A stretch of 64,000 bases of DNA from Sporopachydermia quercuum (GCA_001599295.1 BCGN01000003.1:62001-126000); one strand, 5' to 3'. Numbered from the stretch's first letter, positions 31,449 through 51,153 are shown. Notes: generated from the letters alone by a model not told the origin. Program-made: numbers and translations.

Positions 31449-33515
31449 ATGCCAGTTAAAGAAACAACTACAGACGTTCTAATCATTGGCGCAGGCCCCG
31501 CTGGTCTGATGTGCGCCAACTGGTTGGCCCGTACCGGAGTCGACTTTAGAATCATTGATAAGCGTTCTGACAAAGTGTTTGCAGGTCAAGCAGATGGTCT
31601 ACAATGTAGAACTCTCGAAACTCTTCAATCCTTTGGTTTTGGGGATAGAGCATGGAAAGAAGCAAACCATATGATTGAAATGTGTTTCTGGGAACCAGAT
31701 GCAACTGGAAAGATTTACAGATCAGCTAGAATGAATGATACAATTGTTGGTCTATCAAGATTCCAACAAGTTGTTGTTCATCAAGGTAGAATCGAACAAT
31801 GGTTCTTCGATGCTATCAATAAATGGAGCAACGGAACAAAGAAAATAGAAAGACCCTTATTACCTATCAAAATAGACATTGATGAAAAGAAGATAAATGA
31901 NGACAATGCTTATCCTGTATCTGTTTTACTCAAGAAGTTAAGCGATACTGAAGCTGATCCAGAACAATACGGCAAAATTGCTAATGGCTTATTCAGACAG
32001 TTTGGTGGAGACAACGACAAGATCTACGAAGAGCTTGATGGATCTGAAAGTGATTTCGAATTGGTTAAGGCAAAATATGTTCTAGGTGCCGATGGTGCGC
32101 ATTCTTGGGTTAGAAAGGAACTGGGAATCGAAATGGAAGGAGAGACCACTGATTTTGTGTGGGGAGTTCTTGATTCAGTGCCAATCACTGATTTCCCTGA
32201 TATCAGACACCGATGTGCCATTCATTCAGCTAATAATGGTTCTGTTATGGTTATTCCTCGGGAGAATGGTATTGTTAGACTCTACATTCAATTAAAAGAA
32301 GTTCCCAAATTATCAGATGGTACTTCCAGAGTTGATAGATCAAAAATTACTCCAGAGTTGATTTTGCAGAACGCTAAGAACATTTTCTATCCTTACAAGT
32401 TTGATATCACGGATTTAGATTGGTTTACTGGCTATCAAATCGGTCAAAGAGTATCACCAAAGTTCCATAAAGATAACAGAGTGTTTATTGCTGGTGATGC
32501 ATGTCATACCCATTCGCCTAAAGCTGGCCAAGGTATGAATGTCTCTATGATGGATACTTATAACTTAGGATGGAAGCTTGCAACTGTTTGTAAGGGATTA
32601 GCNAGTAGAGATATTTTGGCTACTTACGAAAGCGAAAGAATCCAAGTTGCAAGAGATTTGATTGCATTTGATCATAAGCTCTCTAGGTTATTTTCTGGTA
32701 AGCCCAGTTTGCCAGGTCAAGTTGCGGCTGTTGCTGCTACTGAAGATGGGGAAAAATCTGGTGTCTCTCTTGAGGAGTTCAGAAATACTTTCCGTAAAGG
32801 CAATGAGTTTGCTTCTGGTTGTTTTGTTGATTATAANCAAAGTATCATTGAGTTGAAGCCCAAAAGGAAGAGTGGTATCGACAATGAAGAAGTTTATACT
32901 AGTCCNGCCGCTAATAATATTCCAATTGGAAGAAGATTGAAATCTACAATGGTTATTACTCATTCTGATGCCAGACCATGGCAATTAGCTGATAGACTTC
33001 CTTCTGATGGTAGATGGAGAATTTTAAACTTTGCAGGTGACATCGCCAAAAACGAGAAATTACGCGAAACCTTGAATAAGCTCGGAGACTATTTCAGTAG
33101 CAACAAATCAGTAATTAAGAAGTATACTCCAGTTGGTGCTAGAATTAATTCAGTCATTGAAGTTTTAACCGTTCATGCCTCTAAGAGAGTTGATTTTGAA
33201 TGGAACGACTTCCCCGACTTTTNCCGTGCTAGAGATGTTAGTGGAAGAATGAACTACTGGGGAATTTACACTGGTAAGGACGAATCATTCCATGAGGGAA
33301 CTTCTGACGCTTATGGTCATTTTGGTATTGATGAGAATAAGGGAGCTTTGATAGTTGTTAGACCTGATGGATATGTTGCCGCTGTCACTGATTTGAGTTT
33401 TGAAGGTATTGAAGAGATTGAAAAGTTCTTTGCGGGATTTATGATTGATCAAACAGATAAAGAAGTACCTGTTGATACTTCCATGGGTTTGAACAAGCCT
33501 GTCTTGGGAGTTTAA
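31449..33515 (+). CDS. FAD-dependent aromatic hydroxylase, phenol 2-monooxygenase family (phenol, hydroquinone or 4-hydroxybenzoate hydroxylase)
   Basis: GAGPAGL FAD motif, [39 protein letters not shown] and a C-terminal thioredoxin-like domain (VRPDGYV). Confidence 0.93.
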
Positions 33516-34794
33516 ATAAAGAGAAAATGTGAGAACAATGAAAGTTGAAATGGGTGTATTTATTGATAAATAATGTTTATAATGTTTATTGAACATATTG
33601 AATGAAAAAGCCTGTTTTTGTAGGATATTTGAAAGAGGTGGAATGTGGGAATGTAAGTGGGATGCAATGGTAAGGCACTTGTAGCTGGTCTTCTGAAATT
33701 AGGTTTGTAGTTCTAATGCTAAAGGTTCAAAATGAAAGAAGGTAGAGGTGATATAATTCACTGGAGTTAGAGATGAAACAAGACTTTAATGCATGTGCTG
33801 ATGCAATACCTTCCATTGTATATGATTCTAGCTTGCATTTCATCTTTATTTCGTAGAAAAGAAATAATCAAGTTATTCATAGATCATTGGGAGAGATATC
33901 CACAGCTACAAATACCATTCAAGGTTCATAAGATTGTGATAAAGATTAGGGTTTACTAATAAACTCTGCTAATCCGAACTTTAATTACTCATTCACTGAC
34001 TCTCGAGTCTTTAATTCTTCTGTAGCTTTAGTTGTTCATTATTCATACATTCACTCTTTCTTTTCAATAATCAGTTGATAATTTTATAATATTCCGCTTT
34101 ACATTTCCACAATTTTACAGACCATGAAATGAAATGAATAGTTCTAGCTACATTCTTTGTTTTTATTCTCTCTTTAAAGAACACTTTCAATAGATAGAAT
34201 CTTAACTACAATCTTCAATTGCGTAGAGCATCTCAAACCTCAGATAGAATTCTTTATATAGAAAATAGATATAGAATATAGAATATATTACAACAAACAA
34301 GCTAGGCAGACAGTTACTTATTGGAACATCATTGTTGATGAATGAGAGGCATTTGTCTGATTTACTGTTGATTGGATTGATCTACTAACAGTACTGTTTG
34401 CTTTCAAGCAGTGGACACAAATTGGTTAATTCTAATTAGTAATTTAAATTATAAAATAAATTGAATGTGGCGGAAATTGAAAGAAAAGAAATTGGAGCCA
34501 AGTTTGGCAATTGAGCTGAACAGTTGGATCACGTTACACATACACCATAGTAGAANTTTCCTACTCTTACAATTCTTATCAATGAACATGCATTAGTTGC
34601 CAATTTCCCAATAGTCCGTTACCATTGATGTACGTTTCGGCATGAAAATCTTCACTTTACTTTGACAGACTAATCACTAACACAGTAACTTATTTATTCT
34701 AATGTAAATCAGTTGACTTTCCTTACTTTTCATATATTTTAATCTCTCAATCCTCCATTTCTTTCATTTCTCCATCGATGATTCATTCATCCAC

Positions 34795-50400: not shown

Positions 50401-51153
50401 GCGGGAATTTTTCCCGTCTTTCACGGGTTCCACTTCGTAGTCGATTTCTTCGGAAGCGGAGGCGAAAGTTGAAGGGTGTGATTGGGAAAGTTGGAGGGTG
50501 TGATTGTGTGATTGTGGCTCTGGTGGTAACTGTGGCGCTGACTCATTCTGTGGGTCATTTAACACAGAGGCCAAATCATTGTTTTTCCTTTTCCTTTTCC
50601 GTTTTTGTTCATTTGGAGCATANATCGCATTGGGAGATTCCGAGATTATTTCCGATATCTTCCCCGAAATAGTCTCCGACGTTGTCTCCGTCATAGTTTC
50701 CGATATTGTTCCCATATTCTTATTCACGTCTTTCATAGTTTGCGGTTCATCCTCATTAACCAAAGACTGTACTGGGTTTGCCCTACTGTTTGACCCACCT
50801 ACCCCTCCCCCGCGTTTTGAACCGTTACGAATCGAGTATTCACATGTAAATCCCTTCCGACTGCATATTTTGCACGGCAATTGTCCGTCACACTTCTGCT
50901 TCCGCTTCTTACACGAATTACAAGCATAAGCCACCCGTTTCCGCTTCGACTCATCTACTATTCGGCGCCGCCTTTTCGCAGCGGCTGAGGTAGAGGGGTT
51001 GGCAGGGTAGGTTGAATTTGTAGTGCTAGTATTAGTATTAGCGTCAGAATTTGCCGCGGAATAGAACTCCTTGTTGGGGTTTATTGGAACAGGAGTTGTA
51101 TTTTGAGGAGGTAAAATGGGATTTGAGGCATCGAAACCAGGATGCGAAGGCAT
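47449..51153 (-). CDS. Zn(II)2Cys6 fungal transcription factor with a fungal-TF middle homology region; probable cluster regulator
   Basis: ACNSCKKRKQKCDGQLPCKICSRKGFTC, RRKLWRSLYVSDRLFSLSVGRP and an acidic/hydrophobic C-terminus. Confidence 0.92.
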   Translation of the reverse strand: MPSHPGFDASNPILPPQNTTPVPINPNKEFYSAANSDANTNTSTTNSTYPANPSTSAAAKRRRRIVDESKRKRVAYACNSCKKRKQKCDGQLPCKICSRKGFTCEYSIRNGSKRGGGVGGSNSRANPVQSLVNEDEPQTMKDVNKNMGTISETMTETTSETISGKISEIISESPNAXYAPNEQKRKRKRKNNDLASVLNDPQNESAPQLPPEPQSHNHTLQLSQSHPSTFASASEEIDYEVEPVKDGKNSRLLHDTSGNLRYIGETSVLSLLAQCRNLFLRKLGVSEFTEDPGRFNLVDAPGYSPSITVAQLPAREIADILTESFRTNINSYTYVFRMSWLRNEISELYLNPLGASKSKLCLIHLVFAIGTVFIKSDHIPEKFQKFAQSGISPGLFFQSALGILAEYAENGNLWVVQAYLLVFLFYQSVCKRNAAWLNLGIAIRYGQALGLSRKAVNVAFRKEECTHRRKLWRSLYVSDRLFSLSVGRPFSISDEEWDDGPGATGTGAIGGATGGDVGESGTGNGNGNGNGSGSGSGSGSGSGSGSGSGSGSGSGSGSENRENRTNSAISGNLSQSTKDIKDSTPLSTPLATPHLPWLFPSSEASFEPLSESVVEQYEDSISIQLVRICRILGDISRHVYRKGRLSSNHARVLALKLKNWSEGLPEEFRVESLLPTKIAGDLTGGTGTGINGTETGAGSGANGGVNPEVSPFRSTQTNTHLTTSHQIGITKLKRVPQTIQMAVLRIHLAHLHGVILLSRPFFYYVISRSLDLPSLLPSKSHTNLNALNGASSRTNSSAPQTAASAASMNLANSSNSRYVLSAIKVFDSFLQACVQSALLSVQLVDHMYGKNEYQKPRRPHLLIYYAFNCGIILGLQALHLHPQKDICINDALCAVACILGELGSEDAXARRYGDILTRLCSALGIGNPIKYLEEAKLGNSSGTGTGIATRTEVGGAKQQSNQNDPANGLLDMDTHMLNFGTNIVGQAAARVSDIRNETMNTVASPSGTERNTNANTNANLKINSDSYLNLSCLGSATPLTSNNKVSIYPASFLDFDRWLQRNGEISGVDSEVGQIEQAENTNSNLGNLPRNSVTQSDKYSTLSSQQGFPYLGNTLQQLQPKSPAQPHHSSMALNAPRAPHFSPFYPRNTSNTTSTNTPPYLQGPRTIESTSSTGFTNEEDAAEAPADVFSGLETGNGIDNEIFVYDAFNLNFSLQLESGDKEDVFRGMLIGQXF
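49481..49590 (-). repeat. Coding hexamer repeat encoding (GN)n(GS)n inside the transcription factor
   Basis: (CTTCCA/CTTCCG)n on the plus strand, translating as GNGNGNGNGSGSGSGS... Confidence 0.9.

Follow-up and report, generated by a model that had tools for sequence, protein, structure and literature searches.

A gene cluster of the yeast Sporopachydermia quercuum that probably encodes a complete route from phenol and catechol to central metabolites

The locus considered here lies in a 64,000-nucleotide stretch of Sporopachydermia quercuum DNA (GCA_001599295.1 BCGN01000003.1:62001-126000), hereafter called the window, in which all positions are counted from the first letter. Between positions 31449 and 51153 the window carries eight long intron-free open reading frames (ORFs), all intact in the standard code, which are named here PHH, MLI, OEL, CDX, MCI, OSC and OCT, with a gene for a Zn2Cys6 transcription factor at the end (Table 1). 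ORF and Pfam scans bear out an earlier note on this DNA, which had described eight consecutive genes of these families, including two divergent pairs and no housekeeping gene in between. The divergent pairs are CDX(-)/MCI(+) and OSC(-)/OCT(+), and no further ORF of at least 60 amino acids (aa) with a family match was found between the eight genes. With good confidence, the cluster can be regarded as a complete set for converting phenol and catechol into central metabolites, consisting of seven enzymes and a likely regulator of the ZCF25 family.

The proposed chemistry is that of the beta-ketoadipate route, which ends in succinyl-CoA plus acetyl-CoA, as the earlier note had supposed and as the family assignments of the seven enzymes support. 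PHH would hydroxylate phenol to catechol, the intradiol dioxygenase CDX would cleave catechol to cis,cis-muconate, the CaiB-like protein MCI would convert the latter to muconolactone, and the NTF2-like protein MLI would shift the double bond of muconolactone to give 3-oxoadipate enol-lactone. The alpha/beta hydrolase OEL would then turn the enol-lactone into 3-oxoadipate, from which, together with succinyl-CoA, the fused family I transferase OSC, probably in mitochondria, would make 3-oxoadipyl-CoA, and the thiolase OCT would finally split this product into succinyl-CoA and acetyl-CoA. The factor, putatively of the ZCF25 family, most likely activates all the promoters via a common TCGGATA element, probably including its own promoter. 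No genes of the hydroxyquinol (HHQ) branch or the protocatechuate branch were found in the cluster or among the scanned window ORFs of at least 120 aa. The protocatechuate branch was rejected as the function of the cluster, which is without a protocatechuate dioxygenase, a carboxymuconate cyclase and the 54-kDa hydrolase/decarboxylase. The suggestion in the earlier note that the cluster serves lignin-derived aromatics is therefore too broad, since the enzyme set is one for phenol, catechol and whatever is funnelled there, and not for protocatechuate or hydroxyquinol.

Table 1. Genes of the cluster, copies of the TCGGATA element and flanking genes in the window
Feature	Position	Strand	Description
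PHH, flavin phenol-hydroxylase type	31449-33515	+	688 aa; Pfam FAD_binding_3 (5e-72), Phe_hydrox_dim (2e-60)
MLI, NTF2/SnoaL-like	34795-35262	-	155 aa; family by NTF2-like model and homologues
OEL, alpha/beta hydrolase	35749-36678	-	309 aa; Pfam Abhydrolase_1
CDX, intradiol dioxygenase	37467-38384	-	305 aa; Pfam Dioxygenase_N and Dioxygenase_C
MCI, CaiB/BaiF-like	40230-42101	+	623 aa; Pfam CoA_transf_3, residues 303-484 only
OSC, CoA-transferase	42506-44071	-	521 aa; Pfam CoA_trans, E 7e-107, two stretches
OCT, thiolase	45659-46903	+	414 aa; Pfam Thiolase_N and Thiolase_C
Zn2Cys6 factor	47449-51153	-	1234 aa; Pfam Zn_clus and Fungal_trans
TCGGATA, three copies	30329, 30421, 30660		upstream of PHH
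TCGGATA, two copies	35283, 35517		upstream of MLI
TCGGATA	36586		between M1 and M38 of the OEL ORF
TCGGATA, three copies	36793, 36819, 37181		upstream of OEL
TCGGATA, three copies	39664, 39955, 39984		CDX/MCI divergent promoter
TCGGATA, four copies	44514, 44530, 44562, 44940		OSC/OCT divergent promoter; highest count of any promoter
Variant element TATCGGATG	51344-51352		only element copy upstream of the factor gene, 191 bp before its ATG
Y_phosphatase2 protein (flank)	27939-29399		tyrosine-phosphatase family
Rho-family GTPase, last exon (flank)	52459-52620	-	ends in a polybasic stretch and CVIL
Med10 (flank)	54664-55227

The five families at the core of this locus appear also to be those of the catechol cluster of Candida albicans and C. 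subhashii. As listed in supplementary material to the genome paper on C. subhashii, the C. albicans cluster comprises HQD2, ZCF25, OEL1, MLI1 and MCI1 (C4_02230C through C4_02190C; strands C, C, W, C, C), and ZCF26, encoding a paralogous factor, has been reported beside it. For a wider comparison, a CaiB-like protein alignment served to scan metagenome contigs and gave 80 fungal loci. Two of them, L002 and L003, are near-identical and intron-free, with the order dioxygenase(+), Zn2Cys6 factor(+), hydrolase(-), a 146-aa NTF2-like gene(+), CaiB-like gene(+), and then a second Zn2Cys6 gene. Order and strands agree with the published HQD2-ZCF25-OEL1-MLI1-MCI1 arrangement with ZCF26 adjoining, and identity between the window proteins and their L002 counterparts ranges from 32 to 62%.

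With homologues counted at E values up to 1e-8, the 80 loci hold a dioxygenase in 10 cases, an NTF2-like protein in 8, a hydrolase in 8 and a phenol hydroxylase in 5, while CoA_trans and thiolase homologues both number zero. Twenty-four loci are informative in that they are non-duplicate and extend at least 5 kb to both sides; here the Zn2Cys6 factor is present in 21, the hydrolase in 6, the dioxygenase in 6, the NTF2-like protein in 5 and the hydroxylase in 3, and in none of these 24 fungal metagenome loci does an OSC or OCT homologue stand beside the MCI gene. Of the upper cluster, the pair formed by the factor and MCI is the most constant part and apparently its conserved core. The same genes are clustered with the CaiB-like gene in the intron-bearing contigs L015, L048-50, L053 and L062, and since loci such as L053 hold six upper-pathway genes together with the factor, the upper cluster is widespread in Ascomycota. 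What is special here is that OSC and OCT, sharing one promoter, lie inside the catechol cluster. As a separate observation, in many of the 21 loci with a factor (e.g., L004) the related gene is found about 2 kb upstream of the CaiB-like gene on the opposite strand, often without other catechol genes nearby.

PHH can be aligned nearly end to end with the phenol hydroxylase of Trichosporon cutaneum (1PN0; E 3.8e-198) and scores 519.8 bits against the NCBIfam model of phenol 2-monooxygenase, slightly below the 560-bit cut-off. It is thus a putative phenol 2-monooxygenase, which would provide catechol from phenol. CDX and the dioxygenase that occupies the HQD2 position in L002 share 62% identity over 292 residues, and CDX is best described as a protein of the catechol 1,2-dioxygenase type, a presumed orthologue of HQD2 and CrcA.

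MCI shows 52% identity to the gene product at the MCI1 position of L002. Its homologues, 545-595 aa long and 50-59% identical, are found across Ascomycota, with the nearest named relatives (55-57% identity) coming from budding yeasts of several orders. Because the homologues begin near M29, 40314 is a likelier start than 40230. In A. nidulans, as quoted in a 2025 review, deletions of AN3895, AN4061 and AN4531 lead to accumulation of cis,cis-muconate, muconolactone and enol-lactone, respectively. The quantitative PCR (qPCR) primers for AN3895 translate to ADVLV and CFGYEG, which are both motifs of the CaiB-like family, and with up to four mismatches allowed per primer the pair maps 140 bp apart within the CaiB-like homologue in six loci. 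MCI therefore belongs to the AN3895/MCI1 family and is probably responsible for the step from cis,cis-muconate to muconolactone.

The predicted structure of MCI, with a predicted local distance difference test (pLDDT) score of 85.5, assigns the C-terminal half to the family III CoA-transferase fold. Foldseek matches over 360-390 columns include Rv3272, formyl-CoA transferase, SUGCT and CaiB, while the N-terminal portion of about 270 residues forms a separate domain with no match among solved structures. D461, invariant in all 19 sequences compared, falls in the alignment on the TD/AD-motif Asp of formyl-CoA transferase and succinyl-CoA:glutarate transferase, which we take to be the catalytic residue of family III CoA-transferases.

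No Pfam match was obtained for the 155-aa MLI, and a word-index search with this protein alone returned nothing; a HMMER search retrieved 174 representative relatives. Its Atlas features match SnoaL-like clusters (0.96), and its model is an NTF2-like barrel with a pLDDT of 93. Invariant residues include S24, D25, Y38, R65, W69, R75, H77 and Y140. Ketosteroid isomerase uses the NTF2-like fold as well, for an allylic proton shift of this type. MLI is 46% identical to the 146-aa gene product at the MLI1 position of L002. AN4061 is listed as a muconolactone isomerase (IPR032710) in the supplement of a paper that also gives qPCR primers for it; these translate to MLYGTV and QVYLDPS, and MLI has MLHGYV and QVYLDVS at the same places. 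MLI thus belongs to the AN4061/MLI1 family and probably accounts for the muconolactone isomerase step. Taken together, the positions and identities at L002 assign the CaiB-like protein to the MCI1 family and the 155-aa protein to the MLI1 family, so the two proteins that the earlier note had left without an assigned role are in fact members of published families, AN3895/MCI1 and AN4061/MLI1. Another candidate for membership in either family, A. niger NRRL3_00837, was rejected as being AhpD-like.

OEL shares 36% identity with the L002 gene product in the OEL1 position, in which the first 47 or so residues of OEL have no counterpart, and is regarded as a probable 3-oxoadipate enol-lactone hydrolase of the OEL1/AN4531 type. 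The extra N-terminus is either a presequence or an untranslated region, if M38 is the start. The 10-mer GATCGGATAA occurs at 35281-35290 and at 36584-36593, that is, about 20 nt upstream of the MLI ATG and of OEL M38. This equal spacing hints that M38 (36567) is the true OEL start, and also that in both genes the TCGGATA element is situated very close to the start codon.

OSC consists of fused A and B subunits and exceeds the cut-off for both the PcaI/ScoA and PcaJ/ScoB subfamilies of NCBIfam, consistent with a 3-oxoadipate:succinyl-CoA transferase of family I and of the OSC1/KstA type. Its first 41 residues contain six K/R and not a single D/E; such a basic, presequence-like N-terminus fits the predicted mitochondrial import of Osc1 from C. 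parapsilosis, for which an import sequence has been predicted. OCT scores 391 bits, above the cut-off, against the acetyl-CoA C-acyltransferase (thiolase I) subfamily of NCBIfam and is taken as the 3-oxoadipyl-CoA thiolase, the step of OCT1/KctA, from the promoter that it has in common with OSC. No C-termini resembling the peroxisomal targeting signal type 1 (PTS1) were seen.

The Zn2Cys6 factor resembles members of the ZCF25/ZCF26 family. When the two L002 factors were compared with it, the one at the ZCF25 position gave 32% identity and 245 bits, and the neighbouring paralogue gave 212 bits. The gene contains a long Gly-Ser/Gly-Asn repeat tract at 49400-49660, and the protein has long low-complexity tracts. 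Growth of C. albicans on catechol depends on Zcf25, and so does the induction of OSC1, of POT1-2 and of the factor's own cluster. By analogy, the genes physically joined in the window are those of the C. albicans Zcf25 regulon.

A k-mer comparison of six promoter regions with the rest of the window yielded the related motifs ATCSGATA and TCGGATA. The former has 17 matches against 3.86 expected, all within 30329-51351. For TCGGATA, whose statistics are to be read as descriptive because the element was chosen after inspecting these promoters, 21 copies were counted against 6.05 expected, a number reached in none of 100 shuffles; 19 of these fall in the interval bounded by the flanking genes, at 29400-52385 (binomial P 3e-7). 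Its density is 1.47 per kb in the intergenic parts of the cluster (15 sites), 0.31 in the coding parts and 0.05 outside, so that intergenic copies are about 30-fold denser in the cluster than beyond the cluster interval. Such enrichment suggests that the cluster genes are co-regulated, and the factor encoded in the cluster may be the protein that binds the element. Sites of the CGG-N-CCG type are not enriched in the cluster promoters. TCGGATA was rejected as a site for Otf1, from whose published sequence GGRN10WCC it differs. It was also rejected as an element conserved across lineages: upstream of MCI homologues in other lineages its density is 0.22 per kb versus 0.12 elsewhere.

Several observations weigh against a phenol/catechol cluster under one regulator. 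The solved structures closest to CDX are hydroxyquinol 1,2-dioxygenases (PnpC, 1e-61; 1TMX, 9e-52), and bacterial catechol dioxygenases match it only at about 1e-33; with hydroxyquinol enzymes as the nearest solved structures, the substrate of CDX is deduced from synteny and not from sequence class. The best NCBIfam model for OEL, the PcaD 3-oxoadipate enol-lactonase, reaches 122.7 bits, below the cut-off of 255.85, and PcaF models likewise score below cut-off for OCT; thiolase paralogues are hard to tell apart, and confusion among them is known. For the CaiB-like family, the role as a cycloisomerase goes back to a mutant phenotype quoted in a review, and the fold of MCI is that of a CoA-transferase with the family Asp kept, unlike any known cycloisomerase. 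On the regulatory side, only 8 of 41 loci have a TCGGATA copy in the 1 kb preceding the MCI homologue, and L002 is not among them.

The dioxygenase result raises the question of whether the cluster serves instead the HHQ branch, in which the flavin hydroxylase would form hydroxyquinol from resorcinol or hydroquinone, the dioxygenase would cleave hydroxyquinol to maleylacetate, and OSC and OCT would act on the 3-oxoadipate obtained from the latter by reduction. OSC1 does belong to the Candida HHQ cluster, PHH and MNX3 are treated as one orthogroup acting on both phenol and resorcinol/hydroquinone, and A. niger CrcA is listed as accepting catechol as well as hydroxyquinol. However, a maleylacetate reductase, of the FRD1 type or other, was not found in the cluster or among the scanned window ORFs of at least 120 aa, whereas MCI, MLI and OEL, which only the catechol route needs, are present and intact. 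A cluster that lacks the reductase and carries three genes specific to the catechol route is unlikely to have an HHQ function; the 62% identity of CDX to the HQD2-position gene of L002 and the likeness of the factor to the ZCF25-position gene, in a comparison limited to the L002 factors, point the same way. A different question concerns the CaiB-like protein, which might be a working CoA-transferase or CoA-ester isomerase, so that the muconate step, or a side step, would proceed on a CoA thioester. This is rather unlikely, notwithstanding the full family III fold in the modelled C-terminal half, the invariant D461 aligned with the family Asp, a residue class treated as catalytic in the mutants deposited in the PDB (Rv3272 D175A, CaiB D169A, AMACR D156A), and the distance of 404 bp between the MCI and OSC genes. 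Free muconolactone and enol-lactone are reported to accumulate in downstream A. nidulans mutants, and the N-terminal domain of MCI finds no solved-structure counterpart.

It could also be that the genes are neighbours and yet do not form one regulated unit, with OSC and OCT being general ketone-body or beta-oxidation genes. SCOT-type transferases and thiolases do act outside aromatic catabolism, and the absence of OSC and OCT homologues beside MCI in the 24 informative loci agrees with such a view. But their common promoter carries 4 of the 21 TCGGATA copies, more than any other, the C. albicans counterparts OSC1 and POT1-2 are Zcf25-dependent on catechol, and the two genes stand within the cluster, with MCI on one side and the factor on the other, and not at its edge. 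Position and promoter sites together make chance adjacency highly improbable. Thus, the phenol/catechol cluster with its own likely regulator of the ZCF25 family is the interpretation that we retain.

Set against known systems, the cluster is a fuller version of a kind already met in Candida and moulds, set apart from Candida by the consolidation of the catechol core with PHH, OSC and OCT. As in the Candida catechol cluster, a Zn2Cys6 factor, apparently of the same family, lies inside and the NTF2-like and hydrolase genes are adjacent. The gene order differs, PHH, OSC and OCT are added, the factor has 1234 aa versus 805 aa, and the window host appears to read CUG as Leu. For C. albicans, the supplementary material cited above gives FRD1, DQD1, HDX1, OSC1 and ZCF10/OTF1 as the HHQ cluster, with PHH1/2 and OCT1/POT1-2 elsewhere. 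In Candida, then, OSC1 is part of the HHQ cluster and the latter genes are unclustered. The statement of the earlier note that the catechol and hydroxyquinol branches form separate clusters in Candida agrees with the published C. albicans gene sets, and its view that the present locus joins upper- and lower-pathway genes holds as well, with PHH, OSC and OCT lying beside the catechol core. The Candida HHQ cluster resembles the window cluster in having OSC1 beside an intradiol dioxygenase and a Zn2Cys6 factor; in contrast to it, the window cluster has no maleylacetate reductase, possesses MCI, MLI and OEL, and is enriched in an element other than the Otf1 site.

In Aspergillus nidulans, the same families are found at every step (AN4532, AN3895, AN4061, AN4531, AN10495), including the non-bacterial MCI and MLI, and mutant phenotypes have been reported for catechol-branch genes. 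Judging by gene numbers, these genes occupy several loci, with only AN4531 and AN4532 being adjacent, and the literature searched contains no report of a single cluster that also includes the CoA-transferase and the thiolase. Scedosporium apiospermum has PHH, dioxygenase, MCI and factor together, and its MLI adjoins OEL; the genes are, however, on two scaffolds, with a transporter of the major facilitator superfamily (MFS) and without the lower-pathway genes. The bacterial cat/pca operons (catA, catB, catC, pcaD, pcaIJ, pcaF) share the chemistry and intermediates, and the dioxygenase, enol-lactonase, PcaIJ-type transferase and thiolase are homologous. Unlike the bacterial enzymes, MCI and MLI have unrelated folds (family III CoA-transferase-like and NTF2-like), and each window gene has its own promoter. 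KEGG tools recognise only one of the four fungal core enzymes.

No yeast or mould locus joining the catechol core with PHH, OSC and OCT was found in the literature searched, in which coverage of the key primary papers was incomplete. We may tentatively propose, with more doubt than confidence, that this is the first described eukaryotic locus holding a whole aromatic ring-degradation route in one cluster, in which a dispersed Zcf25 regulon has been gathered under lineage-specific TCGGATA wiring, and that the muconate step may be CoA-dependent, given that MCI retains the Asp found in the active site of family III CoA-transferases. The locus would offer a natural example of regulon consolidation, as genes spread over three places in C. 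albicans under the control of one factor are neighbours here and have a common candidate cis-element, and it makes the assembly of such a cluster testable. It may also serve as a simple system for the unexplained cycloisomerase with a CoA-transferase fold. Moreover, a compact, intron-free 20-kb cassette could be useful in engineering, either for phenol and catechol breakdown or, without the MCI gene, for cis,cis-muconate production.

The 3-oxoadipate pathway has been described as "very sparse" in Saccharomycotina and complete mainly in CTG-clade species, with vertical descent and loss weighed against transfer from moulds. With the window, a complete catechol branch is recorded from a yeast that does not belong to the CUG-Ser1 clade. 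The eight genes contain 24 CTG codons, 13 of them alignable with homologues; the majority residue is L/I/V/F at eight of these, Ala at one and Ser at none. The pattern fits a CUG-Leu budding yeast. No tRNA gene was found in the window. In a maximum-likelihood tree of MCI, the window protein falls within the yeast group, apart from four mould sequences, and its sister set (support 96/95) comprises Ascoidea, Candida arabinofermentans, Babjeviella and CUG-Ser1 species. This placement among yeast sequences is consistent with vertical descent.

Two public runs from two studies contain single contigs covering 33224-49522 and 33224-47454 with zero differences from the window. Uninterrupted contigs in both argue that the linkage of the genes is not a joining error of the assembly, with the reservation that these runs may themselves be the source of the assembled DNA. 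Contigs of both runs break at 49522-49534, in the repeat tract of the factor gene, and the sole base difference (49410 C>T, run X2) adjoins this place. Single N bases number 78 in the window and are scattered, at about one per 800 bp, over genes and spacers alike (for example at 31901, 32603, 37551, 41585 and 47455, the last coinciding with a contig break in run X2). They give X in translations, break no reading frame, and look like masked ambiguous or heterozygous calls.

The genes flanking the cluster are, judging by their families, housekeeping genes (Table 1), and the outer neighbours encode a PAPS reductase, RPS8, a PRPP synthetase, a ubiquitin hydrolase and a Sel1-repeat protein. The remainder of the Rho GTPase gene must lie in further upstream exons, which means that the host has multi-exon genes, unlike the intron-free genes of the cluster. 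Two ORFs, 16833-17423 (+; 196 aa) and 62141-62992 (+; 283 aa), are without a Pfam family. Finally, the C/D-box snoRNA snR56 is encoded just downstream of RPS8 at 20208-20282 (-), with a score of 57.8 bits, above the gathering score of Rfam RF01188.

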